From assembly GCA_963701855.1 (NCBI GenBank), contig CAVPBK010000009.1, positions 458,063 through 522,062 of the forward strand: a stretch of DNA of 64,000 bases, read 5' to 3'. The translations under genes were made by a program, and so were the position numbers. This document shows, in pieces, positions 31,848 to 55,974 of this stretch; position 1 is the stretch's first letter, and each line of letters starts with the position of its first letter. Origin of the DNA: Nitrospirota bacterium (GTDB taxonomy: Bacteria > Nitrospirota > Nitrospiria > Nitrospirales > Nitrospiraceae). Below the pieces are notes generated by a model. It was not told where the DNA came from. It saw nothing but the letters and a program-made list of their open reading frames with translations, and did no database searches.

Positions 31848-31868
31848 GCATTATGAAAGACTTGATGC

Positions 31869-32300: not shown

Positions 32301-32475
32301 TGTTGGTGCCACCGTGGTGCCGAACAACCATGACGCACCATAGTCTATGGTGGTAATGAATCACTCCTCACCCTCGCTATTATCGGCTGATTTGTCGTCT
32401 TAGGGTCTGCTGAGGTGGGTTTCCGACAGGACTCTTCATCAGCGGGCCGTAAGTTTGCCCCCTGTGCCTCCCATC
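32301..32475 (+). other. att-like scar: TGGTGCC x2 plus degenerate tRNA-Lys(CTT) 3' half
   Basis: Repeats at 32304 and 32315; GACTCTTCATCAGCGGGCCGTAAGTT..; homologous to 53239-53414. Confidence 0.65.
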
Positions 32476-32964
32476 GTCATGTTGCAGTAGCCTCCGGCAG
32501 TGGCCGACCGGCTAGCACCTGCGAGGCGCACCGCTCGCGCCACTAAGACCGCCACTCCTGCTGCTTGGTCGCCTCCGGCACGCCGACGATAGCCTCTGCC
32601 TCATTGTTCTGGCGCGTTTCCTGTGCAATGACCGCGTCCGGTCGTTGCCCACGAAGGTTGCCAACCAATCAGTGGGAACTGCTTGGACCCATTGGAACTA
32701 CAGCTGCGGGGCCGACCATCTCCGGGCAGGTAAGTAGAACAACTCCCGGCTGGTCAATCTCGAACAGCGCCTTCCCAGCTGGCGTTGTGGTGTTGGTACC
32801 CTGCTGGTCGATGAAGAGATCGTCAGTTGTTTAGGACCTACCTGAGTATCGTGTGAGCGGGGCACAACTCTAACCCAAAACTATGGCGAAAGCACTTTGC
32901 GTCGTATAGTATTAAAGACGTGGGGACATCATGCTGCATAAGTGAAAAGCAGGAGAAGAGCAGC

Positions 32965-34245
32965 ATGTCTCGTCTAGCTGCCGTTGTGCTTGCCGTTCAT
33001 CTGCTGTGTCTTTGGACAAGTCCCGTCTCAGCCTATGTTTGGCGTTGCCACAGCCCCCATGGAGACTTCTGGACCACCGCACCGAAGGAGTCCGATGATT
33101 GCAGTGAGTATGACAGCATCTATAACCCCGATGCGGCGCCGCCGATGGCCCAGCAACGCACCGCAATGGAATTCACCACGTCGGAGCGAGGGACCAAAGA
33201 CAAGGTGCTGTTCACGCAGCCAGAACTCGATCAGATGCTGGCACCAATTGCCTTGTATCCCGACTCGCTGCTGTCGCACATTTTGATGGCCTCGACCTAT
33301 CCCCTGGAAATTGTCGAGGCCGCCCGCTGGGTGAAGGCGCACTCGACGCTTCAGGGCGACCAGGCAGTCAAAGCGACCGACCAAAACAACTGGGAGCCCA
33401 GCGTGAAGTCGCTCGTGGCATTCCCGAATGTGCTGGCGATGATGGATGAGAAACTGGACTGGACGGAACGGCTCGGCGACGCATTCCTCTCGCAACAGCC
33501 GGAAGTCATGGACACCGTTCAGAACTTGCGTCAGCGCGCGTCAGCCAACGGCAGTCTCCAGTCAACCGACCAGGTTCGTATCGACCAGGAGGGGCAGAGC
33601 ATTTCGATCACCTCGCCGGACCCGCAAGTGGTGTATGTTCCCTACTACGATCCCATGATCACCTATGCCCCCTGGTGGTGGTCGACCTATCCGCCGGTGT
33701 TCTGGCGACCGTGGCCCGGCTACTTTGTGGGTTCACGGCTGGGTCCCGGGTATGTGTGGGGTCCGGGCACCACGGTGGGCGCCGGTTTCTTCTTCGGCTC
33801 CTTCGACTGGCGGCATCGACAGGTCAATGTGGTGACCGTCAACAACTTTTATTATCACAATACTGCCACCAGAGCCTGGACACACGACCCTGTCCACCGC
33901 CGAGGCGTCACCTACCGGGAGGCCGCGTTGCGTCAGCAGTATGGGCGTGCGCACGCCTCGGCGCCGGTCCGGCAGGATTTCCGCGGGCACTATCCCTCCC
34001 CGGCTTTTCCCGGGAGTCGCGAGGCCTTCGGGAATCGTGGCAACGCCCGCAGCAGCGTTGCAGGGGGCCATCCGTCGCTGTCTGGTCCCTCTGGGTTTCG
34101 AGGCAGCGAACCGCGACCCCATGCCTTCGAAGGCATCGGCCATGGAGCATCCGCGCAGAAATTCGGAGCACGCGGCAATGCCAGTGTTCCCCGTGGCGGC
34201 GGCGGGGGATTCCATAGCGGCGGTGGAGGCCATCACGGCAGGTAA
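32965..34245 (+). CDS. DUF3300 domain protein
   Basis: ELDQMLAPIALYPDSLL..MASTYP..WEPSVKSL..VVYVPYYDP; Gly-rich tail. Confidence 0.9.
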   Translation: MSRLAAVVLAVHLLCLWTSPVSAYVWRCHSPHGDFWTTAPKESDDCSEYDSIYNPDAAPPMAQQRTAMEFTTSERGTKDKVLFTQPELDQMLAPIALYPDSLLSHILMASTYPLEIVEAARWVKAHSTLQGDQAVKATDQNNWEPSVKSLVAFPNVLAMMDEKLDWTERLGDAFLSQQPEVMDTVQNLRQRASANGSLQSTDQVRIDQEGQSISITSPDPQVVYVPYYDPMITYAPWWWSTYPPVFWRPWPGYFVGSRLGPGYVWGPGTTVGAGFFFGSFDWRHRQVNVVTVNNFYYHNTATRAWTHDPVHRRGVTYREAALRQQYGRAHASAPVRQDFRGHYPSPAFPGSREAFGNRGNARSSVAGGHPSLSGPSGFRGSEPRPHAFEGIGHGASAQKFGARGNASVPRGGGGGFHSGGGGHHGR

Positions 34246-34246
34246 T

Positions 34247-35185
34247 ATGCGACTCTCTGTTCATTTCGGACGATTTCCGTTCTCGATTCTGACTGTTCTG
34301 TTGTTGGCGATGCCGTCCACGGCCTCGAGTGAATTCTTCGTGCAGACGACGTTTTCCTCCGCTGAGGAGGGGACGCAGGCTTTCGTGGAGGCCATCACGT
34401 TGAACGATCCGGATGTATTGCAAACGCTCTTAGGCGCCGATGGTCTGGAGTTGTTCGACTCGGGCGATCCCGCCGCAGATGCACAATGGCGCAAACGGTT
34501 TCTCAACGCCTATGCGGAGACCAACAAAGTCGTGCTCGAAGAGAACAACACGCGCGCGATCTTGATCGTCGGCCGCGACGCGTGGCCCATGCCGGTCCCG
34601 CTGATAAAATCGGACAAAGGATGGCGTTTCGATGCGCAGCATGCCGCGGAAGAGACCCTCAACCGACACGTTGGCCGCAATGAGCTTGCCGCAATCCAGG
34701 TGTGCCTAGCGATCGTCGAGGCCGAGCGTGAGTACGCGAGGCAAGATGCGGATGGCGACGGCGTTCCGGGATTCGCCTCGAAATTCGTCAGCTCGCCCGG
34801 CAAGCGGGACGGCCTGTATTGGGAGACCCGCGAAGACGAGCCCGTGAGCCCAATCGGACCCTTGCTCGCAGCCGCAGCAAACGAAGGGCTCGTCACCTCC
34901 GACTCGACCGCTTTGACGCCCTTTCATGGCTATTTATATCGAATGCTCACTAAGCAAGGTAAGAATGCGCCGGGAGGTGCATACGACTATGGGGCTCACG
35001 GCAAACTACTGGGGGGGGTTGTCATCCTCGCCTATCCGGCCCGCTACGGCATGTCCGGTGTGGTGAGCTTCATGGTCAACCAAGACGGAGTGGTCTACCA
35101 AAAAGATCTCGGTCAAAATACGGCGGCGCGGGTGGCTGAGATGACCGAATTTGATCCCGACCCGAGTTGGATACGCTTTCAGTAA
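34247..35185 (+). CDS. DUF2950 domain protein
   Basis: WPMPVPL, RHVGRNEL, DGLYW, PFHGY, YPARYG.SG, VYQKDLG; usual partner of DUF3300. Confidence 0.9.
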   Translation: MRLSVHFGRFPFSILTVLLLAMPSTASSEFFVQTTFSSAEEGTQAFVEAITLNDPDVLQTLLGADGLELFDSGDPAADAQWRKRFLNAYAETNKVVLEENNTRAILIVGRDAWPMPVPLIKSDKGWRFDAQHAAEETLNRHVGRNELAAIQVCLAIVEAEREYARQDADGDGVPGFASKFVSSPGKRDGLYWETREDEPVSPIGPLLAAAANEGLVTSDSTALTPFHGYLYRMLTKQGKNAPGGAYDYGAHGKLLGGVVILAYPARYGMSGVVSFMVNQDGVVYQKDLGQNTAARVAEMTEFDPDPSWIRFQ

Positions 35186-35727
35186 AGAAATAGAGCCCCA
35201 CTCCACTTACTTCGTAGACAACCGAGGTCTTTTTTATTGGCTCTTCTCCTTCCCGAATGGGCGATTTCGGCCTGATTCCCTCTTCGGGTCGAGCATGCCG
35301 GTGAGAGCTGTCGCAGGTGCGCTCCATCACCGCTGTGAGCATGACTACGTCAAAAGGTTCCATAAGAATTTGCCTAGTTGCTCTGCCTCATGGCCCCACG
35401 GATGACCATCCCGGGGCCGATGCGTCGACGCGACGAATCGGCTCAACTCATAAGTCTGCTGCAGATTGCCGTGTGGCAGTGCACGGTCGCCTGAGTTCGC
35501 TGTGGGCTGAGGAAGTCTAGTCCGACATTCCATGCTTGTCTAATCGTTCGTCCTGTTGTCCCAATGGGGATAGACTGTGAGTCCTCCAGTCTATCCAGTT
35601 ATCAGCCCGCTCGCCGTCAATGGTTCAACAGATCAACAGGCTGGAGCGCCCCCAGAGGACGAAATCTACCCTTCAAATCGTAGGATGAGCCCTGTTCAAT
35701 TTTCCCCTGGAAGAACCGCACGACACT

Positions 35728-35890
35728 TGCCATCTGCACCTGCTACCAGGACAGGACAAACCAGCCCCATCTGCCCCCATGTCAGGAGCATCCTGGTTTG
35801 TGGTTTCTTGTGGGGTTAGGTGGTCTGAGGCTGGGCTATCTGAAATTCGTAAACCGCAGGTCGTCCGTTCAATCCGGATCGCCGGCTCTA
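35728..35890 (+). other. att-like scar: TGCTACC arm plus tRNA-Thr(CGT) 3' half
   Basis: TTCGTAAACCGCAGGTCGTCCGTTCAATCCGGATCGCCGGCTC at ~35846-35888. Confidence 0.75.
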
Positions 35891-36003
35891 TCCCAACTGG
35901 GGCGAAATCGTTAACAGTTAAGGGGGAGAGTGAGGCCCGTCCTTCTCTTCTTCTCTACAAGGGCATTGCGCTAATAGAGGCGGCGCCGCCGCCCAGTATT
36001 TTG

Positions 36004-36456
36004 TTACCTGTGATCCCTGCCCACGCCACCTTGGTCTTGAGTCTTGCGGCATGATTCCTGGTTGCCCACCTCCTGCGCGTGCCCCCCGGTTGACTGACAT
36101 GCCGACGGTCTGGGTTGCGCACCATTCTCGCCGATCGGACGGTCTGAATGGGCGAGGCCTTGGCTCACATCATCCTCCAAGCTCGTGCTCACCACCTGCA
36201 CCCCAAACTCGCGCCCTCTCACCCATTGCACCGTTGTCATGTCAACGTGTATCGGGATGGGTTGGTTGGGTAACGTCACACGGAGCGCGAGGCTCATGCC
36301 GAGGTGAATCGGTCGAGGTTCAATGGTCGTGATGTGCCAGCCATCGACGGAGAAATTCTGAACTATCCCCGTTCCAAACACACCATCGCCTTCATAATCC
36401 ACAAACCAGGTGATCGGAATGCGAATGCGACGGCGAGAGATGAATTTTCGGTCCAT
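36004..36456 (-). CDS. PilZ domain protein
   Basis: SRRRIR, QNFSVDGW, VQWVRGREFGV; C-terminus possibly degenerate. Confidence 0.75.
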   Translation of the reverse strand: MDRKFISRRRIRIPITWFVDYEGDGVFGTGIVQNFSVDGWHITTIEPRPIHLGMSLALRVTLPNQPIPIHVDMTTVQWVRGREFGVQVVSTSLEDDVSQGLAHSDRPIGENGAQPRPSACQSTGGHAQEVGNQESCRKTQDQGGVGRDHR

Positions 36457-36707
36457 GGCTGAAGGTCTCCGTTAATCTACCGACCTGGCCCTATGATAGG
36501 GACGGGACGGTCCACAAAGACCCGCATCATCATACATCGGATAGTCACCGCTACACACTAGGGGAATCACTAGTTCCACGAGAAGTCGTTGCTGTGCAAG
36601 TGAGCGAGTGGTGGTGAAGCCGTCGGCTCTTGTGTTGTCCAAAGGGGCAGGAGGATACCAGAATGGGCTGCAGCATGCCAGACTCCCGGTGCCTTTTTTT
36701 CAGCTCT

Positions 36708-37856
36708 CTATGGAGGAGTCGGATTCGTGGGTGGAGTGGTCGCTAGGGTCGGGAAGGATGCCTTGCAGTCCAGAAGCACACGCACAAAGAGTTCGGCCAA
36801 CGTGGGATCAAAGTGGGTACCGGCATAGAAACGTATCTGGTGGCAGGCCTCCTCCATCGAGAGAGGCCTCCGGCCAGGCAGGTCCACCGTCAGATAGTCG
36901 AACGTGTGGGCGAGGCACACGATTCGGACCAGTTGAGGAATTCCCTCTTCCTGAAGTCCATAGGGAGCGCCTAAGCCGTCCCACCGTTCATGGTGATAGG
37001 CGATGATCTGTCCCACCTCAGCGGGCAGTCCCAGTGGTAGGACGAGTGTCGCTCCTTGCTCCGGGTGGTGCCGATGACCGACAGACGCTCCGGTCACCGC
37101 CAGGTCTTCGTCAGCCACATGATAGGGCTCCGGTCCGATTTTGCCGATGTCATGGAGGAACGCCCCCAGCGCCACCGACTGCCGTTCCGCGAGCGTCAAG
37201 TTGAGGCGGTTGGCCAAAAGCGTGGTGTAGAAGGTGACCCGGCTGCAGTGGGTGAACAACTGGCGATCCTTCGCTTCAAGCAGATCGGAGAGTAGTGGGA
37301 GCAGGTCCGGTAGGTCGTCGGCATGGGAAGCATTCTCTGATGCAGATGCCCTGACTGCCTGGTAGCCCCTCCGTAAGTCCTCCCACGCCTGCGCACAGGC
37401 GGTGCCTGATTCCCAGAGGGCGGTCGCGGTCCCGATGAACTGTCTGAGGAAATCAAGCCGCTGTTTCGTCGCGAGTGCCTGAGTGACGAGGGCGAGCAAG
37501 TCTGCGACATTGAACGGTTTGAGCAGAAAGCCGGCGGTGCCATGGCGCAGCGCTTCCATGTGAGACCGTACACTCCCATACCCGGTGATGATGATGACCT
37601 CCACGCCGGCGTGGTGCTGCGTGAGGTCGTGAAGGAACTCGAGGCCCGGGCGATCTGGCAGTTTCAGGTCGAGGGTGATGAGATCGATCGGCTGGGTGTG
37701 CAGCACCTCAATCGCGGCACGGGCTGAGTCCGCCGTCTGGATCGTAAAAAATGGGCGGAGAATCACGTGCAGGGCATCCCGAGATCCTGCTTCGTCGTCG
37801 ATCACGAGCAGGATCGGCTTCTGCTTCGCCCGCCCAGGAGTCGCAGGGAAGTGCAT
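36708..37856 (-). CDS. Response regulator with HD-GYP-like domain
   Basis: REC (LVIDD, TLDLKLP, LLKPF) + HCSRV, LHDIGK, HHERWDG.GAP. Confidence 0.9.
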   Translation of the reverse strand: MHFPATPGRAKQKPILLVIDDEAGSRDALHVILRPFFTIQTADSARAAIEVLHTQPIDLITLDLKLPDRPGLEFLHDLTQHHAGVEVIIITGYGSVRSHMEALRHGTAGFLLKPFNVADLLALVTQALATKQRLDFLRQFIGTATALWESGTACAQAWEDLRRGYQAVRASASENASHADDLPDLLPLLSDLLEAKDRQLFTHCSRVTFYTTLLANRLNLTLAERQSVALGAFLHDIGKIGPEPYHVADEDLAVTGASVGHRHHPEQGATLVLPLGLPAEVGQIIAYHHERWDGLGAPYGLQEEGIPQLVRIVCLAHTFDYLTVDLPGRRPLSMEEACHQIRFYAGTHFDPTLAELFVRVLLDCKASFPTLATTPPTNPTPP

Positions 37857-38066
37857 AGGGGTGCTTCCTATCAGGAACGGCTGAACATTGTAAGGAGATA
37901 ATGTCCTACATCGGAGTGACGGGATACGTAGGACGCTGTCCGCTCTTGCCCCGTTGACCGAGAGGGGGGATGAACTTATACTTTTCACGTTCCACTACCG
38001 TCGTGGTAGGCCGATTACTGGCCTCCTCCACTGGAATAAAGAGTCCCGTCTTTGCATCACGTCCCT

Positions 38067-39428
38067 TCAAGGTGCTTTGTTGCGCGGACCAAGCAGGTCT
38101 GGGTCATTTTCTGGTTCTTCTTCCACTAGCAATACGGTTTCCGTTAGCGATACGGCAGATGGGCGAACGGCCATGAGCTGGACAAGATCCTTCGAAAAGA
38201 GCAAATCAAGCGTCCAGTCCAGGGCCACGCGGACCTTCTTTTCAAATCGAGGCAGTTTCGTCAAATAAATCGTCCGCCACAGCCACCAGGCAATGAAGCC
38301 TGAAAAGTTCACCCCCAGAATATTGGCCACGCCGGTCCGTTTCCCGATGGGGGCCAAGAGCCCGAGCGTCGAGAATAGGAAGGGCTTCTTCTGCTCGCCT
38401 CGAATGGTGGCCAGGATATTCTGGGCCGCGAGCTTCCCTTCGCGCAGTGCATGCTGCGCGGTCGGGGGATGGGGTTTCCCGGTTTTGCGATTCGGCACAA
38501 TCGCACTGTCGCCGAAGGCCCAGACGCCAGGCCACTCGGGAACTTCCAAGTACTCGTTGACGAGGACCCGGCCCCGCTCTTTCGGGCATGGCAGTGTGTC
38601 CAAAAGGGAGTTCGGGCAGGTCCCGGCGGTCCAGACCAGGGTATTGGTGATAACCGTCGTGCCATCGCTGAGCGTGACCTCGCGGTCCGTCACTTTGGTG
38701 ACTTTACAGCTCGAATGGATTTCCACGTGTCGTTCCACGAGCTTGCGCTGTGCGTAGGCGCCAAGCTTCTCCCCGAGCTCCGGCAAAATGATCTTCCCCG
38801 GATGGACCAGGATGACCCGAAGCATGTCCTCTCGGAGGTGCGGGTAAAACGCAATCGCCTCCCGAAGAAAGTCATTTATTCCCGCGATGGTTTCGACCCC
38901 GGCGAACCCGCCTCCGGCCACGACGAAATTCAGTAAGGGATCACGGAGGGGCGGGCAACATTCAAAGTCCGCCTCTTCCAGGTTCGCGATCATGCGGTTG
39001 CGCAGAATGATCGCGTCATGCAACGACTTCATCGTGAGCGCACGCTCTTCTAGGCCGGGGAGGTCGAAGAAGTTCGTGGTCGACCCGAGGGCCAGCACCA
39101 GGTGATCGTACGGCAACGAATGGCAATGTTCTTCGTGACCATGCGAGAGGCCAACTCGTTTATGCACCAGATCGATGGTTTCGATATGACCGTGGAAGAA
39201 GGTCACGCGACGCAACAGCTTGCGAACCGGGCTCACAATATTGGCGATATCGAGGTCACTCGCTGCCACTTCGTGCAGCATCGGGGTAAAGAGGAAAAAG
39301 TTGTCGCGGTTGACAAGGGTGACATCTAAGTCAGCTCCCCGTGCAAGCGCTTGCTCGAATTCCATGGCGGCATACATGCCACCGAACCCACCGCCCAGGA
39401 TCAGAACTCGTGGCTTCACATTAGACAT
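38067..39428 (-). CDS. ndh: Type II NADH dehydrogenase
   Basis: GGGFGG, FTPMLHEVA, GGGFAGVE, WTAG, PPTAQHA. Confidence 0.9.
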   Translation of the reverse strand: MSNVKPRVLILGGGFGGMYAAMEFEQALARGADLDVTLVNRDNFFLFTPMLHEVAASDLDIANIVSPVRKLLRRVTFFHGHIETIDLVHKRVGLSHGHEEHCHSLPYDHLVLALGSTTNFFDLPGLEERALTMKSLHDAIILRNRMIANLEEADFECCPPLRDPLLNFVVAGGGFAGVETIAGINDFLREAIAFYPHLREDMLRVILVHPGKIILPELGEKLGAYAQRKLVERHVEIHSSCKVTKVTDREVTLSDGTTVITNTLVWTAGTCPNSLLDTLPCPKERGRVLVNEYLEVPEWPGVWAFGDSAIVPNRKTGKPHPPTAQHALREGKLAAQNILATIRGEQKKPFLFSTLGLLAPIGKRTGVANILGVNFSGFIAWWLWRTIYLTKLPRFEKKVRVALDWTLDLLFSKDLVQLMAVRPSAVSLTETVLLVEEEPENDPDLLGPRNKAP

Positions 39429-39555
39429 AACTGCTCTAACGTGACGGGTAAGCGAACATTCTCAGAAGGCATACACGTTCGGCCTTCAGTGGACCATGAG
39501 ATCACTCCGGTCAAAGGCAAAGCACCAGTCGCGTTAGGCGTCTCAGGTAGCCACA

Positions 39556-41430
39556 TCAGTTCATCTTCACCATCCCTTGGGCTGAAGCAGCAAGGGAATC
39601 ACCAGCTTTGGGTAAATTGGATGGCTTAGTTACGATCGTTGCTTGAACAGGAGACAGTGTTGTGGTCGGGTCGGTCGCATTGGAAGAAGGGGAATACTGC
39701 TTGACTCTGATGATGTTCATCATGCCCAAGTCCTCGTGGCCGAGGATGTGGCAGTGAAACACGAAATCTCCAAGGTCATGCCCCCGGAAGTCGATGCGGA
39801 GCGTGACACTCGGAAAGGGGTGGGCGGGGTCGCCATCCCAATGTGGTACTTCGATCATGTCCAGGAATTGGCCGTTGATCCCCGGCGCCGGGTCGCTCCC
39901 GTTGGTCTCAAAGTGGTGCTGTGCTTCCACCAGGAAATGCAGCTGGTGGAAGTGAAATTCATGGTTCTCCTGTGTCCGATTCTCCACCGTCCACTCTTCC
40001 ACGGTGCCCTGGATGGCCACTATGTCAGGGGTATGATTGGGATTGAACAGGTGTTCTGGCTTTCCGACCACGTCCATGAAGAACAGTGTCGGCTGGACTT
40101 CATTGAAGAAAACCGTGCGGTGTGCAGCAAGGGGTGCAGCGGCGAGGCCGGCGAACCGCTTTTGGCTGTGATTCAAGGCAACGAACGGGCCGACGCGGTC
40201 ATCCCCTGCTGATTCGGTGACCTCGTGGCCGGCACGCACCTGCATGTTTAAGATGGGCCGGTTCGGCTGATCATCGCCGTCACTGCCTGTCAGGATATTC
40301 AAAGTGACCAGCTGTGCCAACTTCACGTGTGTGGGGGGGGCATTCACGAGGAATTCCACCCGGGACGCAGGCGGCAGTCGGAAGTGCCTCACTGCAATTA
40401 GGCTACCCGGCTGATGTCCGTCCTGGGAGTTGACCGGCACCCCGTCAATCGCCACGACATGGATGATCTGCGGCATGCCGTCGAATTGCACTTGCAGGTC
40501 GAGCACGGTGTCAGCGGTTGAGTTGGAGGCGCGCCAGAACTGCTGTTCCCCCGCTTCCATGTGCAGAACCGCAGGCGTATAGGTGGTGGTGGGAGGCGTC
40601 ACACTCATGTCGGTGGTGGTGTTCGTCGTAATATTGTTGACCGTCAAGTCTTGGAATGGGATGCCGTTGGGGTCTCCCCCGACGCCCTCTCCCAAACCCT
40701 GCTGCTGGAATTGAGTGGTCGGTTGGTCTCGAAACATTAGGATGCGATGACGCAGGTGCGAGACAGCGGGCTGAATGTTTTCAATGCCGTCGACGACCAG
40801 AGCTCCGGATGCACCACCGAGGAGCGCGGCTTCCGCCAGCCCGTGCACATGGGGATGATACCAGTACAGCCCCGGCGGTTCGTCGGCAGGAATGACGATG
40901 TCGTATTGGAACGTCTGGTTAGAGTTTACGAGAGTCTTAATCACCTCATCGGAGTGGCACGTGGGGGACGTGTTGGTTCCGTGGAAGTGGATGTTGAGCG
41001 ACGACTGTGTCATCTGGGTTCCGCCCGGCCCGCAGTTCGGCGAATGGATTGTCATGTTCACCGGTGTCGACGGAGTATTATTCGTCACGGTGATGAGCAG
41101 GTGATCGCCTGGCTTTACATGCAATGTCGGATTTTCCAAGCCGCTCGGGGTCATGAAACAAAACAGCGTTCTGCCCACAGAATCTGTGGTGGTTTGATAG
41201 GAGAACTGGACGGACAGCTCGCCGTTCATACTGAACAGCGCGGCGGGTTGGTGGACGATGCTCCCTGCGGCGAAGCGCAGGCAGGGATTTGCAACGGGGG
41301 TGACCGGCTTCGGTATGGTGAAGTCGCTGGCCGCCGTGGGCTGGGAGAAAGCATGGGATGATGCCATCATGTAGAGCAGAATGCCCGACACGATACCCCA
41401 CCTCATACATAGCAACGTTCGTCTATTCAT
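39556..41430 (-). CDS. Multicopper oxidase, exported
   Basis: HFHG, WYHPH, HEFHFH, HCHILGHEDLGMM. Confidence 0.92.
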   Translation of the reverse strand: MNRRTLLCMRWGIVSGILLYMMASSHAFSQPTAASDFTIPKPVTPVANPCLRFAAGSIVHQPAALFSMNGELSVQFSYQTTTDSVGRTLFCFMTPSGLENPTLHVKPGDHLLITVTNNTPSTPVNMTIHSPNCGPGGTQMTQSSLNIHFHGTNTSPTCHSDEVIKTLVNSNQTFQYDIVIPADEPPGLYWYHPHVHGLAEAALLGGASGALVVDGIENIQPAVSHLRHRILMFRDQPTTQFQQQGLGEGVGGDPNGIPFQDLTVNNITTNTTTDMSVTPPTTTYTPAVLHMEAGEQQFWRASNSTADTVLDLQVQFDGMPQIIHVVAIDGVPVNSQDGHQPGSLIAVRHFRLPPASRVEFLVNAPPTHVKLAQLVTLNILTGSDGDDQPNRPILNMQVRAGHEVTESAGDDRVGPFVALNHSQKRFAGLAAAPLAAHRTVFFNEVQPTLFFMDVVGKPEHLFNPNHTPDIVAIQGTVEEWTVENRTQENHEFHFHQLHFLVEAQHHFETNGSDPAPGINGQFLDMIEVPHWDGDPAHPFPSVTLRIDFRGHDLGDFVFHCHILGHEDLGMMNIIRVKQYSPSSNATDPTTTLSPVQATIVTKPSNLPKAGDSLAASAQGMVKMN

Positions 41431-45866: not shown

Positions 45867-46049
45867 GCGTCATTGTTTGAATGCCTCGTAATACTCTGTT
45901 CTCGAGCCACAAAGCGCTGCTCATGCTCTTCTATTTGGCACTCAGGAATATCAGCAAAAAGTGGACTGACCAAAAACCGGAATAGATGACCAGACGGAAG
46001 TTTGAAAAACTCGCGTGTTGATCAGCTACCATTTTATAAATACTAGGGA

Positions 46050-46425
46050 AGATTCCCTGTTAATTCCCTGTTCTTGGGAAGGTGTGGACTTTGCCGAATC
46101 TGTGGAAAGCGATGCGAGATAGGGGTTTTCGTGGGATCCGCCCACCAATGAACGTATATTCAATGGAATTACCCCTGTATATTTCCCTGATACAGGGAAT
46201 AGGTTGCAGAGACTTGTTGGCTGTTGACTGGCTCCACCGCCAACCAGTCTGGACAAGAGAGAAACATTCTCTGTTTCTCGGAGATTGTCGCGATGTTCCG
46301 CCTGGGTTGCGGACAGAACAACTCAGACATCTGCTACCACGCAGCTACCAGAGCAGGGCAAATCACCCCCATCTGCCCCCATGGCGAGAGGATCCTGGTT
46401 TGTGGTTTCTGGTGGCGTTAGGTTG
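46050..46425 (+). other. Compound att-like region (TTCCCTGT x2; GACTGG-N12-CCAGTC core; TGCTACC x2)
   Basis: 46237-46300 repeats 55668-55735; 46332-46425 repeats ~35730-35822. Confidence 0.65.
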
Positions 46426-46670
46426 GGAGTGTGAATCGACCCCTCTTCGCTCTTTCGAGCAAGAGTCAGATTAGAACTTCTTCATGGTCGGTTCATCATC
46501 TGTTCATGCTCGCTCCTTACAATATCAGCCATTCCGAATTATCAAGAACTTGTTCTAGAAAGAGGACCGTCATGTTGAACCTAGCCTTGATTGGTGCGAT
46601 GTATTACGGGCAATCTTCATCTTCATTATGATTGGAGTCATAGAAATATCCATGGAGATGGCTTCGGAGC

Positions 46671-47834: not shown

Positions 47835-47866
47835 ACCCAATTGGAGGAACGAGGAGGGTACGGAGG

Positions 47867-48517: not shown

Positions 48518-48621
48518 CGACGGCGCACGCGGTGTTTCGTCTGATTGAGCTTCCTGTCGTCTCATTCCGCTGGTGCAATCCCCCTCCGCCTCTGCCCATC
48601 CGCTCCTTCCACCGCCCGGTC

Positions 48622-48694
48622 CTCAGGTATTTTTCCAGACGTTCTCAGGTATCCTCCTGATACGTCTCACTGCACCTATTGTGTTTAGGTATAC
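48622..48694 (+). promoter_or_regulatory. Tandem TCAG-N-CC(T/A)G operator/promoter block, copy 1
   Basis: CTCAGGTATTTTTCCAG..CTCAGGTATCCTCCTGATAC closely matches 53464-53535. Confidence 0.6.
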
Positions 48695-48840
48695 GCGAGA
48701 CAGAGGTCTGAGTGAAGCAGTGCGATGAGTGAGGGGCATGCGGATCCATCGTGGACAAGCTGATATCTGTCGTCGATGGAGAGCATGCGCGGTAAACCGT
48801 CAACCGGCTGTCGTTGACAACCCAACCAGGAGGTGGAGCG

Positions 48841-49213
48841 ATGAAGTTCAAGAAATCCATAATCGGTATGCTGGCCATGCTGCCACTGGCGAGGGGTACT
48901 CAATCTCGCGGGGTACAGCGGGGCGCTGTCCGCGAGCTTGGAAGAGAGGCTGGCGTCCTCTCCCGCCCCAAACGATCACCTCGCGGCGGCCAGGATGTAT
49001 CAGAACGAGGCGCGTGAGTTGGAGGCCGAAGCCGTGGAGTATGAGACCGCCGTCTCGAAGTTCACCCCCTATCAGGACTCCAAGGGGTTTCATCATGGCC
49101 CATTAAAAATGGCCGCGCACGGAAAGCGGTATGAGGCGAAGCAGATGCAGGACCTGTATGCCGCACATCTTGCACAGGCCCAGGTCCTGTGCGGAAAGCT
49201 TGCGCCTCAATAA
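48841..49213 (+). pseudogene. Frameshifted paralogue of the downstream lipoprotein
   Basis: MKFKKSIIGMLAMLPL then frame change to LEERL..DHLAAARMYQNEARELEAEA. Confidence 0.75.
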
Positions 49214-49264
49214 CGAAAGAATGTCAATTGGCTGTTTGGGTCAGTCTAACCAGAAGGTGGAGTG

Positions 49265-49642
49265 ATGAAGTTCACGAAATCCATAGTCGGTGTGCTGGCC
49301 ATGTTGCCGCTGGTGGCTGGACTTACTTTCGCGGGGTGTAGCGGGGTGCTGCCCGCCACTTTGGAAGAGAAGCTGATGTCCACACCCACCGTGGACGATC
49401 ACCTCGCAGCGGCTAGATTGTATCAAAACAAGGCGCGTGAGTTAGAGGCCGAAGCCGAGGAGTACGAGCGTGCAGTTTCGACGCTTGAGTCATCTGGAGA
49501 CTCCAAGGGGTTTCATTACGGAGCACTGAGGATGGCCGCGCAAAAAAAACGGCATGAAGCAAAGCAGATGCAGAAGCTGTATGCTTCACATGCTGCGCAG
49601 GCACAGGCACTGGCCCTGCACGGAAAGGCACAGCCTCAATAA
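49265..49642 (+). CDS. Lipoprotein, helical
   Basis: MKFTKSIVGVLAMLPLVAGLTFAGC lipobox. Confidence 0.8.
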   Translation: MKFTKSIVGVLAMLPLVAGLTFAGCSGVLPATLEEKLMSTPTVDDHLAAARLYQNKARELEAEAEEYERAVSTLESSGDSKGFHYGALRMAAQKKRHEAKQMQKLYASHAAQAQALALHGKAQPQ

Positions 49643-49829
49643 GGATCTTCTAACGGCGAGGAGCGTGCCTCTCCGCTGAAGGGCCGCACCGACGTCCGAT
49701 GGTGCCACGCCATTGACCTGCCCCCAAGTGTTAGGCCACCGGTTCAGTTCGCTTACGCCGGGAATGGTCGGCTGGAATCCTGGCTCCAGATCCGACCTGG
49801 TTTAAAGGGGGCAGCAACTGTCTTGGTTG

Positions 49830-50945
<1,116 letters not shown>

Positions 50946-51048
50946 TCGCCTTGGGCGCAAGATACAAGGTCACTTTCCCAATGGACTCCGCTTGCGCGCG
51001 TTTCAGGTCCACGAACTGCGTAAGAGGGCCACTCATACCAGTTGAGTG

Positions 51049-52108
51049 CTACATCCAGTCGATTAGAAGAAGGCCCGCACCAACTGTCGTTTGAGCATGG
51101 TTGTAATCAATCAGACTTTCGCCATAGCCGGTGAAGACCTGCACATACCCCTTCAATTGACGGTACAGCGGAAAACTCCAGTCTGCCTGCATCGCGCCGT
51201 ACAAATTCCAGAAGTTGAGATTACTACGCAGCAGAAGTGAGACCATGTGACCGCTCCGTTCGTAGATCGCGACAATATCGCCGTGGCCCATGTATGTCGT
51301 GATATCGGGGTTGTTATCATCGGTCCAATCTTCTTGAATCCGATACCAGGGTCTTACCATGATCCCGAACCCGCCCCCGCTCAAATCCGAACTGTGCATA
51401 GATCCGATTCCAACTACGGGACAACGGTTCTTGCCGACCGTTGGATTGATGCACCAGGCCAATATTGATAAAGCGTCCCCTCAGCCCAAACAGATCATAA
51501 TCCGTATGGATGACGCCCATGAGTTCCGGTTCATAGTTGTTCTCGCGAAAGGGGGATGAGATGGCTTTGTTATATATCTGAAAGAAGGAGAGTTGTGTAT
51601 ACCCGATCTATAAATCGAAGCGGTCTTTTACCTCCAAGGCTTTCACCTTGAATGAAATCTGAAATTTCACTTCTGTATTGATATAGCCCAGCGATTCTGG
51701 AACTGTGCCCTGCATGGGGGCTGAAGGCTGATTGTTCACGTTAGTCGTGGTGCGGGCGAGTAAGAGGTAGGACTGCTTATGCGGGCTAATCGAAAAAATC
51801 CCGTGCTCCGTGCCAGGGTCGAGTTTCCAGCGGCGGCCCATTAGCGTTGGCGTGCCATTCGAATCCTGAACCGCCGGCTGCTTCGTTCGCTGTTTCTCCG
51901 CCTCGTCATAGCACTTCAAGCGCTCAGCGTCCGACTCAACAGTCCGACATGCCGCACCAGCCTGTGGCATGCCGGACTCGGGGGATTCCGCTGACCATCC
52001 GGTGTTTGTGAGGATGAAGATGCTACCGAGAAAGAGCCAAATTTTGATGATGGCATACAGATATGCCCGTCCTCTCAAGAAAGTATCCCGCCGACCTCTA
52101 TTCCCCAC
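51049..52108 (-). pseudogene. pldA: Outer-membrane phospholipase A pseudogene
   Basis: [41 protein letters not shown] at 51608-51610 plus frameshifts. Confidence 0.85.
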
Positions 52109-52399
52109 GAACGGGATCGCTCCTATGTCGCGTTGGGCGAACCACTATTTCATCAGCCCATGACCATCAGGGCAAGAATTTCTTATCCAATCATCCTCTT
52201 TATTGATCGTTCACACGCCCGATCCGCCTACACCTCCCGCCGTAGAGAAACCGATAACCGCATGCTGCTACGGCATGAGCTTCGCGGCAATCAGCAGGCA
52301 AGATTGAGTCATGCTCACATAACTACCTAAAAGCATGTATCTCGGCCCGGGCGAGTAGGGTGCGCCGAATCCCAACAAAAATCTAACATTCGCCTTCTA

Positions 52400-53238
52400 C
52401 TAGAACCTTTCTCAAAATTGCCTGAGCAGCATCGTGATGCATGCGAGTTGCACAAATCCCAGGAAGTTGGTGGCGTAGTACTCCCAGCGAATCAGTAAGC
52501 GTCGCTTCCATTGGAGCCAGGCAAAGAACCGTTCGACGAGCCAGCGACGTTGATAGCGGCGAAGAGACCGGCCGTCTTGGGTCTTGAGCTTGCGGGTGGA
52601 TCGATGCGGGGCAATCAGGTTCACCCCGTCCTGCTTGAGGTTCACATCGAGCCCATCACTGTCATACGCCCGATCGCCAATGAGATGCTCGGGCTTGGCC
52701 TCCAGCATGTAGAAGTCGAAGCTGAGTTGCACCAACGTGACCTCATGATGGTTGGCCGCATGTGTACTCACGGAAAGGGGCAGCCCATGCCGATCCACTA
52801 TCGCCAGGATTTTCACGCCTTTGCCGCGTTTGGTGAGACCCACGGCGTCGCCGCCGCCCTTGGCTGCGGCAAACATAGCATCGATGAAACTCTCGTGTTC
52901 GTCGAGCGCTCCCCCTTCACACAGCGTATTGGCTAGCTGCGTAAGGATCTCACGCAGGACCTCGTGCTAACACCACTGTTGAAACCGGCGATGGACGGTT
53001 TTGTAATTCGGATAGCACTGCGGCAGCAGATGCCATTGCGCGCCGGTGTTCAGAATCTAGAGCACCGCCTCCAACACAGCCCGTGTGGGCACGGGTTTAC
53101 GACCCGACGGATGTCCGGGATGTGTTCCTCGTGGAAATGTTCACGAATCCGGTCCCATTGGTCATCGCGCAGGCGCAGCATGCAAATACTTATACGTACG
53201 TATGTTCACAGTGTCAACAATTTTGAGATAGGTTCTAG
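52400..53238 (-). mobile_element. IS5-family element with split transposase
   Basis: CTAGAACCTTTCTCAAAA..TTTTGAGATAGGTTCTAG ends; GDRAYDS, RWLVERFFAW; N-terminal part MLRLRDDQW from 53181 is disrupted. Confidence 0.88.
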
Positions 53239-53414
53239 TGTTGGTTGCCAAGTTGGTGCCAAAACACCATGACACACCATGATCCATGATGATCTGCACC
53301 ATCACTAATCCTCCCTCTTTGCTGATGATTGCTCTTGTTGAGTGTTCTGAGGTGGGTTATTCTCGCGACTCTTAATCAGCGAGACCGTAGATTCGACCCC
53401 TACACGGCCCATCA
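53239..53414 (+). other. att-like scar: TGGTGCC pair plus tRNA-Lys(CTT) 3' half
   Basis: GACTCTTAATCAGCGAGACCGTAGATTCGACCCCTACACGGCCCATCA at 53367-53414. Confidence 0.75.
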
Positions 53415-53463
53415 AAAATCAATACCTTATATGTCATAATCATCCGTTTCTCCCACAGGCCTG

Positions 53464-53535
53464 CTCAGGTATTTTTCCAGGAACTCTCAGAAATCCCCTG
53501 ATACTCATTCATGTACCCGTTGTGTAAACGTATAG
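53464..53535 (+). promoter_or_regulatory. Operator/promoter block, copy 2
   Basis: CTCAGGTATTTTTCCAG..CTCAGAAATCCCCTGATAC. Confidence 0.6.
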
Positions 53536-53620
53536 ATGAAAGGTCATATGACTCCCTGGCGAACTCAGGGGGTTGGAAGACACGGGTTTCGAACTACCAA
53601 TCATTAACAAGGAGGTTGTC

Positions 53621-54016
53621 ATGGTATCCCTTCCAAAAATCATCGGTGTCCTCTCATGCGGTGTTGTGCTGTGCCTGAGTCTGGCCGATGCATCGCAGGC
53701 ATTTCGCCTTGACCCTTGTGCCAGTCGAAAAGGTGGTCTCCCGAATCTCCTGCAGTGTAGTCAAGAAGAACGGCAGGGCATTCAAACCATCAAGGGCGAG
53801 GTCCTGCGCGTGGACGGCGATACGCTTGTCGTTGAGCGATTTAATGGGCAGGAAGTGCAGTTGCCAGTCACCGCAGCCCTGAGAAACGGCCACGTATTCG
53901 AGCCAGGAGATTGGATTGAGGCGAAACTCGCCGAAGTGAATCATGAGAGACGCGTGCTGGCCATCCACGATATCAGCAATAAGGAAACGCAGGATAGTAG
54001 GTTGGCTAAACACTGA
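53621..54016 (+). CDS. Small exported OB-fold-like protein, paralogue 2
   Basis: MVSLPKIIGVLSCG..IKGEVLRV..GDWIEAK; AAGGAGG upstream. Confidence 0.8.
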   Translation: MVSLPKIIGVLSCGVVLCLSLADASQAFRLDPCASRKGGLPNLLQCSQEERQGIQTIKGEVLRVDGDTLVVERFNGQEVQLPVTAALRNGHVFEPGDWIEAKLAEVNHERRVLAIHDISNKETQDSRLAKH

Positions 54017-54370
54017 GGAGACCAGGGGCACCGACTTTCAGGGACATGATGAAGCGCGTTTCTCGGCACATCTGTAGGCAGGGGGAGTGATGGCGTTCAA
54101 CTCGTGCTTACATACCCTGATAAGTCGGTGCGCTTTATCCAGCCGACTCCTTCCGCTCGGCAGGGTCGCCCTCCCGGTCCCTACGAGGGAACCCTGCTCA
54201 GGAGTGAAGGTGTCGCGAAAAAAATGATGCGGCGGAAAAAGAGCCCTGGCTACCCTACTCACAATCGGATCGCCGTTACCTTTCGGTCGCATATCTCAGC
54301 TCGGCTCGCTTCAAACAAGCTTTCCGTCGCAAGCGTCGACGATATGTTCGGCCATCGGCGAAGTTGATTC

Positions 54371-54538
54371 TGCTACCACCCTGCTACCAGATCAGCCTAA
54401 GCCATGCCGATCCATGACCATCATGGTTTTTCCAGAATCGTCGTTTTTTCCTTCTGTTAGCTCTTGCTGAGTCGGCTCAGTTTGGGCTGATTCAGATTTG
54501 TAAACCGCAGATTGGAGGTTCAATTCCTCTCGTCAGCC
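54371..54538 (+). other. att-like scar: TGCTACC x2 plus tRNA-Thr(TGT) 3' half
   Basis: Repeats at 54371 and 54382; TTTGTAAACCGCAGATTGGAGGTTCAATTCCTCTCGTCAGC from 54497. Confidence 0.75.
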
Positions 54539-55027
54539 CTTGGATCAAGACCTGACCATCCCGCCGATTTTGCCGCGTTCAGGTCAACTACACCTGAGCT
54601 ACAGGTGCCCCCTTAGATGTTAAAAAAACAATGCCTTATCGGGAGTCTGCGAATATGCAATCCACTCTCTCCAATCCATCCTTCAAAGCTCTGTCGTCGA
54701 GGTCAATGCTACAACGTTCCAGGATCGCCGTGGGAACATGTACCCCTTCGTTCGTAGGGTTGACTCATCGCGTGAAGCGGCGTCAGTATAGACTCCACTC
54801 CAAGCCTAGAGGTCCGGAATTGAATTCACCTCGAAGTGGTAACATTCTCAACCACAAGCAGCATCGTTACGTGTCAAGCCCCTCCCAGACTGATCCCCCC
54901 TCTTTGCTCGGCTAGATTCTACTAAATTACACACAGTCTTTTGCGGGCCCTGCGCCTGGCAATCGAGATCGCCGGCGCATACCTCCGCATAAGACGTACA
55001 AAGGCATCCTGCCGGAGGGAACATGCT

Positions 55028-55423
55028 ATGGGTAAAGCAATTGGTCAACTATTACGCGTAAGCCAGGTGATTCCGGTTTCACGGGAGCGAAGAGATAGTA
55101 AGCGTGCGCCCTGCAGGCTCGTTTGCCCCTTCAAATTGACGAAGTTTGTGGGCAAACGCACTGTGAAGCTGACAAAGGGATTCGGGTACGCAATCAATAA
55201 GAGCGTCAAGGGCATGCTGCTCTTGCTGCCTGTGTCCGTGAACAGACGGCAGGTGGTTGAACTCCGGGTGCCCTCAGAGGCGAGGAAAACGCCGAGCACC
55301 AAATTGGTGGAAGTATGTTGGGCGCGGCCCTTTCCGATGAGTGAACGAGTCAAGATATACCTGGCGGGCACTCGTTGTTTCTTTGAACTTCCCACTCCTC
55401 GTCAGTTGCCACAGGCTCGGTAG
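55028..55423 (+). CDS. PilZ-like protein
   Basis: RRDSKR, INKSVKGM, VEVCW. Confidence 0.7.
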   Translation: MGKAIGQLLRVSQVIPVSRERRDSKRAPCRLVCPFKLTKFVGKRTVKLTKGFGYAINKSVKGMLLLLPVSVNRRQVVELRVPSEARKTPSTKLVEVCWARPFPMSERVKIYLAGTRCFFELPTPRQLPQAR

Positions 55424-55650
55424 GAGGGTTGCAGCTTCTCGGAGCAGATGTACCCCTCAGACGGCCTGCGTGGAACGTCAACCAACTGCGTCTGTTCCGC
55501 TCGTAAACTCCCTGTAGCTTAACTGTAGCGGAACTATCGTGTCCGATCGGGTTTGATCGGTCTTTCATCTGCCGCTGAGCTTTATAACTGATTGAGATAG
55601 AACCGATAGCGAGTAGATCGAGGCTCTATAGTCTCTGGCGCTGTAGGGGT

Positions 55651-55675
55651 TTCAAATCTCGCCCCCTCCGCCAAC
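55651..55675 (+). other. tRNA-Ser(TGA) 3' end duplicate (att core)
   Basis: 25/25 identity to 31936-31960; TGTAGC x2 at 55513 and 55524 upstream. Confidence 0.85.
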
Positions 55676-55974
55676 CAGTCTGGACAACAGAGAATCATTC
55701 TCTGTTTCTCGGAGATTGTCGCGATGTTGCGCCAGGTTAGTGCGCGTAAGTTCCCCGTGTCTGTCCTGCTCTGAGGCGACTTCTCGGGTGTTGGGCGGGG
55801 TTGCTCTGTGCGGCCCTATCACAGTCCCTTTTGACCGATTTCAAAGGGACTGTGATTTCAAATGACTGTTCCCCCTCCAACGAGTCTGGGCACGCGATAC
55901 TCGTCCCCGCTTCGCGAAGGATCATTCGACTTTTGTGCAGCATTGCCCGCTTTTTTGACCATTGGCCATCGAGC

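Follow-up and report, generated by a model that had tools for sequence, protein, structure and literature searches.

Genomic islands at tRNA genes are usually interpreted singly, as one tRNA with one integrase, and tools such as Islander discard tRNA fragments that have no cognate tDNA or integrase. In CIMEs and the accretion of the ICESt1/ICESt3 system, integrase-less remnants lie between an attL and an attR of one specificity and build up in tandem, with possible mobilisation by the integrase of a related element. Integrons and CALINs have co-oriented attC arrays with promoterless cassettes, a CALIN having no integrase gene nearby. For Islander, every island must contain an integrase gene and share its replicon with a cognate tDNA; arrays of at least three islands are reported only four times in 2168 genomes, and integrase frames across attP are known (Mx8, SSV) (Hudson et al. 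2015, PMC4383910). In the tycheposon preprint, each Prochlorococcus island is stated to have its own proximal tRNA and specific integrase (Hackl et al., bioRxiv 10.1101/2020.12.28.424599).

The 64,000 nucleotides analysed here (the window) belong to a soil Nitrospira genome (G000; an assembly of 15 contigs, 97% complete) and hold a patchwork island downstream of a serine tRNA gene, with repeated short modules inside. We propose that the 24 kb behind tRNA-Ser(TGA) are a composite island, probably formed by serial integration from one genus-wide family of elements and by later decay. Three lineages of this family would be represented: K (Lys-CTT, TGGTGCC), T (Thr-CGT/Thr-TGT, TGCTACC), and S (Ser-TGA tip, TGTAGC/TGTGGC). 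The features of the locus are the following:

24091..24129, + strand: displaced 5' half of tRNA-Ser(TGA), left end of a separate 7.8-kb upstream element
30780..31847, + strand: tyrosine integrase gene of the upstream (5'-type) element, outside the downstream island (PF00589, E 3.7e-30; Int_N)
31869..31958, + strand: intact tRNA-Ser(TGA), which anchors the downstream island (ARAGORN, Rfam)
31959..32285, + strand: non-coding stretch directly 3' of tRNA-Ser, with homologues that follow F-type Ser cores at other places
32300..32463, + strand: module A, K-type arm (TGGTGCC at 32304 and 32315) and degenerate Lys(CTT) 3' half (32430-32463, 30/34)
32464..32603, + strand: conserved repeat that trails cores at several loci
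35731..35888, + strand: module B, T-type arm (TGCTACC at 35741, degenerate partner TCTGCAC at 35733) and full Thr(CGT) 3' half (35846-35888, 43/43)
46052..46243, + strand: module G, Ser-like (ATTCCCTGTT twice, at 46052 and 46063; ~160-bp spacer; tip CCACCGCCAAC)
46244..46305, + strand: flank72, first copy, 93% identical to the second
46328..46425, + strand: module C, T-type arm alone (TGCTACC at 46332, AGCTACC at 46343), without tRNA core
49767..50974, - strand: IS110-family insertion sequence (DEDD_Tnp_IS110 and Transposase_20)
52399..53237, - strand: DDE-transposase IS fragment (DDE_Tnp_1), ending 4 nt ahead of module D
53241..53414, + strand: module D, K-type arm (TGGTTGCC at 53242, TGGTGCC at 53254) and Lys(CTT) 3' half (53367-53414, 44/48)
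54369..54558, + strand: module E, T-type arm (TGCTACC at 54371 and 54382), Thr(TGT) 3' half (54497-54537, 39/41) and ~20 nt of conserved flank
55505..55673, + strand: module F, S-type arm (TGTAGC at 55513 and 55524) and Ser(TGA) 3' tip (55651-55673, 23/23)
55674..55804, + strand: flank72, second copy with extension

The six layouts of a repeat pair followed by a tRNA part that had been noticed in the preliminary description are all present, all on the + strand. The modules have sharp limits and measure ~170 bp each, with two direct repeats, a spacer and a tRNA 3' part in succession; the distance from the first repeat to the tRNA part is 126, 105, 125, 126, and 138 bp in modules A, B, D, E, and F, respectively. 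When the tRNA fragments were compared to the tRNA set of the genome, these five matched its own tRNAs, the Lys and Thr fragments starting in the anticodon loop (tRNA positions 29-32) as described. The repeat motif co-varies with the tRNA identity, as had been claimed, and also with the integrase type. Modules A and D are 70% identical, and module C is 86% identical to module B and has lost its core (best tRNA match only 9 nt). The tip of module F extends to 25 nt identical to the tRNA end in self-comparison; at tRNA-Ser(TGA), the last complete island unit ends on the right with module F (attR).

Module G is a seventh module, not mentioned previously. It is 72% identical to a sequence in genome G065 (L017 470-660), which is followed there by two copies of TGTAGC and a frameshifted Ser-type integrase gene. 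A 72-bp repeat (46234-46305 and 55665-55736, 93% identity) had also been overlooked; this flank72 follows tRNA-Ser itself in genomes G083 and G065, and its copy past module F may be the start of a further remnant (55674-55804 is 86% identical to G083 L016 13907-13757 and 89% to G065 L029 6372-6241). The stretch 31959-32285, in which an integrase remnant was searched for and none was found, is 78% identical to C7:6946-7288 of the same genome and 80% to G083 L016 1173-826, with a further homologue at G003 L007 4253-4330. It and flank72 occupy reciprocal positions in G000 versus G083 and G065, so that either may be native chromosome and the other an element end. The repeat at 32464-32603 is 77-86% identical to sequences at C6:1523991, C3:220132, G003 L025 4149-4251, and G085 L009 5350-5475.

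ARAGORN and Rfam found only tRNA-Ser(TGA), tRNA-Ser(GCT), and tRNA-Phe genes in the whole window, in agreement with the earlier statement that the 24 kb contain no Lys or Thr tRNA gene. The cognate genes lie elsewhere in the genome, tRNA-Lys(CTT) and tRNA-Thr(CGT) on contig C6 and tRNA-Thr(TGT) on C11. A PF00589 profile search of 31959-55735 gave no match; the island is devoid of an integrase gene, as had been stated for the 24 kb, and tblastn with the K and S integrases detected no remnant inside it except the tRNA-antisense part. The cargo includes NDH-2, a multicopper oxidase, a glycogen-type amylase, two-component systems, and PilZ proteins, with ORFs on both strands (- strand, e.g., 36004-41451 and 51049-52876). 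Two IS elements inside the region had escaped the first description: the IS110 element has three further copies in the genome (at least 99% identity), and the DDE-transposase fragment is 87% identical to C5:22199-23042.

An integrase gene (30780-31847) directly upstream of tRNA-Ser had likewise been overlooked. At the left end of its element, the displaced 39 nt are 92% identical to positions 1-39 of tRNA-Ser(TGA). The distance between serS and tRNA-Ser is 68 bp in G062 and G086.

With up to two mismatches, TGCTACC-N4-TGCTACC has three matches versus 0.19 expected, a number reached by none of 100 shuffles, one of the three (53011-53028, - strand) not being a module. The TGGTGCC pair, taken by itself, does not reach significance (two matches versus 0.57 expected; 11 of 100 shuffles reach two). 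Homology is stronger evidence than these repeat-pair statistics. Many genomes contain the entire 170-bp unit at 72-88% identity, its sharp ends being the first repeat and the tRNA 3' end, and in the aligned module copies (21, 16, 12, and 9; 21 for module D) homology extends from the first repeat to the tRNA end, with complete arms and conserved repeats in all of them. A scan of the genus, proposed earlier as a check, found copies across G000 and other Nitrospira genomes: among the matches listed, at least 39 of the 84 other genomes in the genus carry an arm-bearing K copy, about 39 an S copy, and 23 a T-TGT copy. Such sharp conservation of complete arms in many copies would fit sites still in use as well.

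Islands at the cognate tRNA gene end in these same modules in sister species, where a tyrosine integrase gene lies alongside, convergent with the tRNA. In G088 (L008), tRNA-Lys(CTT) (2156-2231) is overlapped by an integrase gene (2162-3301, - strand, PF00589 5e-18), past which come cargo and then a K arm with a Lys half (11060-11229); here the homologue of module D forms the attR of an integrase-bearing tRNA-Lys(CTT) island. In G003 (L025), tRNA-Thr(TGT) (c4710-4784) is accompanied by an integrase stub (4470-4643) and by a T arm with a Thr half (660-494), which is the cognate counterpart of module E. For the Ser type, G062 (L021) has serS, tRNA-Ser(TGA), and a convergent integrase frame of 401 codons; in G095 and G086, a disrupted integrase gene accompanies tRNA-Ser, and an F module lies at a distance of 4.6-5.2 kb. 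The F module is present at the corresponding locus in G003, G088, G086, and G095, and the serS/tRNA-Ser(GCT) locus of G003 and G088 has it in an island of just 1-2 kb.

The intact Lys and Thr elements, whose integrases the preliminary description had suggested inspecting for the repeats, also have them on the integrase side of the core: TGGTGCC at +46/+59 in G088 and TGCTACC at +28/+39 in G003. In the Ser type (G062/G095), two copies of TGTGGC were read by eye on that side. Repeats on both sides of the core with an adjoining integrase, as in a lambda-type attP, are thus present in G088 (K), G003 (T), and G062/G095 (S, by eye). The earlier view of the units as integrase attachment-site remnants holds, since matching units lie in integrase-bearing elements at the cognate tRNA genes, and that of the short repeats as arm-type sites gains support from the motif on both core sides. 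The cognate-island position and this two-sided motif make the repeats putative arm-type sites, judged from sequence, and the modules predicted P-arm-plus-core ends, attR or tandem junctions. We regard it as highly improbable that the units are small-RNA genes with a tRNA-like 3' end, or regulatory sites, which merely resemble att sites: the unit length is conserved and some upstream bases of module E can pair with the acceptor 3' strand (by eye), but Rfam gave no match besides noise up to an E of 1, and the same units adjoin integrase genes at cognate tRNA genes and have the motif on both core sides.

Truncated cores elsewhere than in the window share a constant break point: T-type ones end after AACCGCAGGTC with seven different continuations, 6 of 21 K-type copies end after TCAGCG(G)(G), and one F-type copy ends after TTCAAAT. 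Such constancy speaks for nested or secondary-site integration; integrase crossovers with non-cognate sites would be expected to leave this pattern, which suggests that elements insert into each other. Orientation is similarly constrained, all seven window modules and six of six on contig C7 being co-oriented with the tRNA strand; an exception is a T-type arm on the opposite strand in a tRNA-Lys island (C6:1512432-1512292). An origin of the Lys and Thr modules at their respective tRNA genes, followed by transfer to this locus by homologous recombination or segmental duplication through cargo or IS copies and with no site-specific step, is improbable. Material for such exchange exists (four IS110 copies of at least 99% identity, 93% identical copies of the orf147 block, an 85% identical NDH2 paralogue adjoining Thr cores at C6:349096-350375, and 45 tRNA fragments outside tRNA genes in G000, many far from the cognate gene), but random events would not hold the modules on one strand, fixed break points are not expected from them, and the post-core sequences of the window do not match the native tRNA-Lys(CTT) flank, AAACCTCGCTTGCGCG.

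For the composite island, we propose the following scheme. In an element of the family, the tyrosine integrase gene would converge on the target tRNA, its frame running antisense into the tRNA, and the attachment site would have a core, copied from the tRNA 3' part, with paired arm-type repeats to either side; every ~170-bp window module would be the P-arm and core of one such element. The Ser-type pieces, which are the tRNA gene and modules G and F (each with a flank72 copy), would stand for two or more units in tandem, a third remnant being possible beyond F. The Lys and Thr modules would have arrived by nested integration at secondary sites or as passengers of Ser-type units. Integrase genes and P' arms would have been lost later, and the modules would now be immobile relics, at most landing pads for incoming cognate elements. 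While the comparison demonstrates the identity of the modules and the cognate integrase elements of sister species, with the repeats as putative arm-type sites, we infer the route of the Lys and Thr modules to the Ser locus and the order of events. The following observations also count against the scheme: modules A, B, D, and E carry full cores (A degenerate), whereas a secondary-site mechanism predicts truncated ones, so that these four would need either an additional tandem step or transfer from a genuine tRNA gene; and no left junction (core without arm) matching the modules was found in the window.

It is rather unlikely that the modules are working recombination sites of integrase-less, CIME-like cassettes, a multi-specificity gene-capture platform on which visiting Lys, Thr, and Ser integrases take up, shuffle, and export the blocks between cores. 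The complete arms with conserved repeats, the sharp unit ends, and the strict co-orientation would agree with this, and so would (i) E and F modules that flank unrelated cargo in G000 versus G083; (ii) an orf94-PilZ-F block ~90% identical in G065 with a different left neighbour; (iii) the module B arm, 97.6% identical to G018 L001 3940-4062 versus ~80% for conserved interspecies flanking DNA; and (iv) the G065 Ser-type integrase gene at the core of a G-type module instead of the tRNA gene. However, only P-side repeats are present in the window, no P'-side arm repeats following the cores, and lambda-type integrases do not excise between two attR-like sites. The cargo genes are found on both strands, the paralogous orf147 blocks are not bounded by cores, and block limits are 20-100 bp off the cores. 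The G065 integrase gene is frameshifted, and G000 (97% complete) has no close homologue of a Lys- or Ser-type integrase, its best matches to the catalytic part being 34% (K) and 36-41% (S) identical; with 15 contigs and this completeness, an integrase gene is possibly missing from the assembly, and contig C7 starts within an integrase fragment. The preliminary interpretation stands for att remnants, arm-type repeats, and motif co-variation. Blocks relocated as units and integron-like cassettes mobilised in trans are candidates at most, and the missing P'-side repeats, the two cargo strands, and the block limits count against the cassettes; breakpoints had been expected at the cores, and the shared orf94-PilZ-F block starts 20-100 bp beyond the E core.

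Genus-wide, many sharply bounded att modules exist, with several specificities mixed in single co-oriented arrays. A doubtful but far-reaching reading is that modules are kept because they are used: islands would be shared docking arrays where Lys, Thr, and Ser integrases, all from a single family, insert at each other's ends and take the modules as surrogate attB, with a fixed crossover next to the anticodon stem, and blocks would be captured, stacked, and re-exported across tRNA loci and species. Docking arrays would then be a multi-specificity counterpart of integron-style gene capture from lambda-type sites. If mutual insertion is active, it explains the pooling and movement of accessory genes among loci in nitrite oxidisers; if there is decay only, the modules still serve as markers for mapping old integrations.

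As in integrons and CALINs, co-oriented recombination sites punctuate the cargo and no integrase gene is nearby; unlike them, the locus has no attC-type imperfect palindromes and no IntI, and its cargo lies on both strands with own promoter-like regions. Membership was rejected on the direct repeats with a tRNA part (a predicted lambda-type arm-plus-core) and the cargo orientation. The island resembles CIMEs in its integrase-less remnants at att sites and their tandem accumulation at one target, and differs in the mixed specificities and missing P' arms; it was not assigned to them, as no P'-side repeats follow the window cores and neighbouring cores belong to different tRNAs.

With tycheposons it shares tRNA-adjacent islands, repeated integration with older elements pushed inward, and degenerate elements and scattered partial tRNAs left behind; it does not have one tRNA type per island, because Lys, Thr, and Ser sites lie in one window island (10.1101/2020.12.28.424599). 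Its parallels with Islander islands are the intact tDNA that marks one end, opposite a co-oriented cognate 3' fragment (Ser), the attP size of ~250 bp, sublocations centred on the anticodon and in the T region, and an integrase frame across attP; it is unlike them in that four of the seven window modules belong to tRNAs encoded elsewhere and the integrase is absent (PMC4383910). tRNA-Ser(TGA) (31869-31958) and the 23/23 tip (55651-55673), both on the + strand, bound the island; there is no PF00589 match in 31959-55650, and no cognate tDNA at the opposite island end for A, B, D, and E. The modules are the leftover ends of three related kinds of tRNA-targeting elements, a known mode of genome growth with unusually mixed site types here.

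The preliminary description had reported, between 32301 and 55735, six layouts in which a pair of short direct repeats (the arm) is followed, after a spacer, by a tRNA 3' portion. Each of the six (modules A to F) was found where it had been placed, on the + strand throughout. Aligned with the 45 tRNA genes encoded by this genome (4.3 Mb in 15 contigs), the tRNA parts of five modules match host tRNAs, with the identities that had been named: that of module B matches tRNA-Thr(CGT) over 43/43 nt, that of module D tRNA-Lys(CTT) over 44/48 nt, that of module A the same tRNA in decayed form (30/34), that of module E tRNA-Thr(TGT) (39/41), and that of module F is the final 23 nt of tRNA-Ser(TGA) (23/23). 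Module C showed no tRNA part in this alignment. The window itself, which spans C9:458063-522062, contains three tRNA genes in all:

31869-31958, + strand, tRNA-Ser(TGA) (ARAGORN, Rfam)
58092-58183, tRNA-Ser(GCT) (ARAGORN, Rfam)
58338-58413, tRNA-Phe (ARAGORN, Rfam)

The TGCTACC pair was matched 3 times versus 0.19 expected, one of the three matches being an unrelated site, and 0/100 shuffles reached 3; the TGGTGCC pair by itself is not beyond chance (2 matches were reached in 11/100 shuffles). The main support for these units is the homology of whole units, not repeat-pair statistics.

Several families of arms precede tRNA 3' halves of this genome.

Arm families and their tRNA partners
TTGTGCTAA, twice; partners Thr-CGT, Arg-CCT, Lys-CTT, Lys-TTT and Met
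CTGCTACC, twice; partners Thr-CGT and Thr-TGT; arm of window modules B, C and E (T-type)
TGGTGCCAA, twice; partner Lys-CTT; arm of window modules A and D (K-type)
TGTAGC, twice; partner the tip of Ser-TGA; arm of window module F (Ser-type)

The three families of the window have about 20 more copies outside it in this genome, among them a second module array on contig C7. The combination of arm and core recurs across the genus. Matches to module D are present in 81/85 genomes, to module F in 61/85 and to module E in 76/85, many of which span the tRNA gene only and have no arm; arm-bearing matches to D occur in at least 39 other genomes of the genus and, among the matches listed, those to F in about 39 and those to E in 23 other genomes. 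The aligned copies (21 D-type, 16 B-type, 12 F-type and 9 E-type) are conserved from the first direct repeat to the tRNA 3' end, with nothing in common beyond either limit.

In sister Nitrospira species, islands located at the cognate tRNA genes end in these same modules. In genome G088, a convergent tyrosine integrase gene (PF00589, 5e-18) comes after tRNA-Lys(CTT), then 8 kb of cargo and a K-type arm with a 47-nt Lys half. In G003, an integrase stub comes after tRNA-Thr(TGT), and a T-type arm with a 43-nt Thr half lies 4 kb further. serS, tRNA-Ser(TGA) and a convergent 401-codon integrase frame are grouped together in G062; G095 and G086 have a broken copy of this Ser-type integrase, with the F module 4.6-5.2 kb further. 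On its integrase side, too, the core has the repeats: after tRNA-Lys (G088), TGGTGCC at +46 and +59; after tRNA-Thr (G003), TGCTACC at +28 and +39; and, read by eye, TGTGGC twice for the Ser type (G062 and G095). Paired repeats on both core arms, beside the integrase gene, are the layout of a lambda-type attP. The occurrence of the motif on both sides of the core in these elements, including the Lys and Thr repeats of the window at tRNA-Lys and tRNA-Thr integrases, thus supports the earlier proposal that the repeats are arm-type sites. In each module a P arm (the repeat side) is joined to a core, which makes the module either an attR or the junction of two tandem elements. A tRNA-like fold without a D arm, for which pairing was drawn by eye in D and E, was dropped as an explanation of the modules because the units adjoin integrase genes. 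The reading frames of the Lys- and Ser-type integrases cross the tRNA in antisense (loci L008 2162-3301 of G088 and L021 1348-2553 of G062), so that at least their last 24 codons are set by the att core, and the tail of these integrases should differ between the integrated and the excised forms.

The distance from serS to tRNA-Ser is 68 bp in G062 and G086. In the present genome, a separate 7.8-kb element (24091-31868) lies between serS and tRNA-Ser(TGA):

24091-24129, displaced 5' half of tRNA-Ser(TGA), 39 nt, marking the upstream element
30780-31847, integrase gene of the upstream element, 21 bp upstream of tRNA-Ser(TGA)

This integrase gene is part of the upstream element, not of the downstream island. 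The cargo of the upstream element includes a PilZ protein and an Adhesin_E-domain protein, and G095 has an integrase tail 88% identical to that of the element in the same position.

Module F has the same position relative to tRNA-Ser(GCT) and tRNA-Phe in the present genome, G003 and G088, the latter two having only 1-2 kb between tRNA-Ser(TGA) and module F. A seventh module (46052-46243) comprises ATTCCCTGTT twice, a spacer of about 160 bp and a Ser-like tip, CCACCGCCAAC; in G065, TGTAGC twice and a frameshifted Ser-type integrase gene come after the homologous module. A 72-bp repeat follows both the seventh module and F, in copies 93% identical, and in G083 and G065 it follows the tRNA-Ser gene itself. 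The 327 bp after tRNA-Ser in the window, in turn, follow F cores in G083, G003, G065 and contig C7. We read these reciprocal flanks as tandem Ser-type units, which would extend over about 31959-46243 and 46244-55673, possibly with the remnant of a further Ser-type unit beyond F. The native chromosome may be either the 327-bp stretch or the 72-bp repeat.

Pfam-supported cargo of the island includes DUF3300/DUF2950, an HD-GYP response regulator, NDH-2, a multicopper oxidase, an amylase-family enzyme, a histidine kinase with a LuxR-type regulator, an IS110 element and a DDE transposase fragment. The phospholipase A1 (PF02253) gene at 51049-52108 is probably a pseudogene, since it is split into two ORFs (51049-51462 and 51608-52108). 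Two ORFs are PilZ-like, 36004-36456 with a score under the Pfam cut-off and 54941-55423 by motifs read by eye only. A small gene with a signal-peptide-like start is tandem-duplicated at 48729-49642 (ORFs of 125 and 126 aa, period 423 bp, copies 76-81% identical). The orf147 block (53441-54135) encodes a small secreted-looking protein preceded by a conserved motif, CTCAGGTATTTTTCCAG, that recurs at 48622; copies of the block occur at C6:716146 and C12:32471 (93%) and, less similar, on five other contigs. This block was rejected as a cassette, its 93% copies lying inside a larger shared duplication and not adjoining tRNA cores. The flank after module A was likewise rejected as a native tRNA-Lys(CTT) flank, being a separate repeat that is found without cores too. 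This repeat, about 140 nt long (32464-32603, beginning GTAGCCTCCGGCAGTGGCCGACCGGCTAGC), is 77-86% kept at C6:1523991, C6:1527244, C3:220132 and in G003 and G085, in many cases right behind a tRNA core or an integrase stub. Rfam gave no match to it; tRNA genes aside, Rfam gave no family at gathering score in the window, and E values up to 1 gave noise only. Past the E core, at 54594-54620, an ACTACA/GCTACA pair spaced 11 nt is the reverse complement of the Ser-type arm motif; it is kept as AGCCACA twice after E-type cores in G083 and at C6:351004, and AGCCACA twice also precedes the orf94-PilZ block in G065. The edges of arms appear to be hot spots of insertion: the DDE-transposase IS fragment (52399-53237) stops 4 nt short of module D's first arm repeat, and in G018 (L001 3309-3940) about 600 bp are inserted within the repeat region of a T-type arm.

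Heterologous placement, as of Lys and Thr sites in a Ser island, is the rule in this genome, which has 45 tRNA fragments outside tRNA genes, many of them far from the cognate gene; the tRNA-Ser island of G083 likewise holds Glu, Phe and Thr-TGT pieces. T-type truncated cores all break after AACCGCAGGTC, with seven different continuations, and a K-type arm lies 9 nt past this break in some copies and 38 nt in others. Among K-type copies, 6/21 have truncated cores that break after TCAGCG(G)(G), and one F-type core breaks after TTCAAAT. A fixed break with varied partners is expected of integrase crossovers at non-cognate sites, from which we infer that the ends of one type of element, or sites beside them, have repeatedly received insertions of another type. 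A T-then-K composite has the identical junction in both G018 and G089, so such composites travel too. The modules lie on one strand in the window (7/7) and on contig C7 (6/6), with one exception at C6:1512432; this co-orientation fits directional, site-specific events, and random recombination as the origin of the arrays would not yield it. The window's own Lys and Thr modules, however, have complete cores, which counts against the crossover model as a full explanation: for them, a further tandem step or a move from genuine tRNA genes would have to be assumed. In 30 relatives, matches to the cargo are scattered and 66-89% identical.

The preliminary description had suggested that the modules bound cassettes mobilized in trans. 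Complete arms are conserved in every aligned copy, the module B arm is 97.6% identical to an arm of G018, and the cargo between E and F differs between the present genome and G083, all of which such cassettes would explain; however, the window cores have no P'-side (integrase-side) arm repeats after them, and the island has no integrase gene, just as had been noted for these 24 kb. For the catalytic part of the K- and Ser-type integrases, this genome has best matches of 34% and 36-41% identity, respectively, the other orf147-block copies do not have cores at their ends, and the orf94-PilZ-F block (about 90% identical to G065) begins 20-100 bp past the E core. Weighing both sides, we consider mobilization in trans unlikely. 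Parts of 46200-56000 were present in 20 public soil and rhizosphere runs from 14 studies. Over 35790-55789, the contigs from four runs were short and broken at repeats, and none joined a block across two cores. A contig from soil run X3 joins 55668, in the F core, to 46237, at the first copy of the 72-bp repeat, and may represent a circle, a tandem or an allele; its short side is only 39 nt, inside the 72-bp repeat, so a circle or tandem is not separable from an allele.

The Islander paper (Hudson et al. 2015, PMC4383910) describes a tDNA with a displaced fragment, sublocations at the anticodon and in the T region, integrase frames that cross attP, and tandem arrays as rare, and its filters require both a cognate tDNA and an integrase gene; the window differs from an island so defined in both the integrase and the cognate-tDNA test. 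Tycheposons (Hackl et al., bioRxiv 10.1101/2020.12.28.424599) share the stacking and the dispersed partial tRNAs, but each of their islands has a single tRNA and a single integrase type. The window also departs from CIMEs and accretion in the two-sided att test, and from integrons in the attC and orientation tests. The literature searched on tycheposons, CIME accretion and tandem tRNA-fragment islands yielded no mixed-tRNA att arrays, a search that leaves their absence unproven. We file the window as a decayed, accreted tRNA island with mixed specificities.
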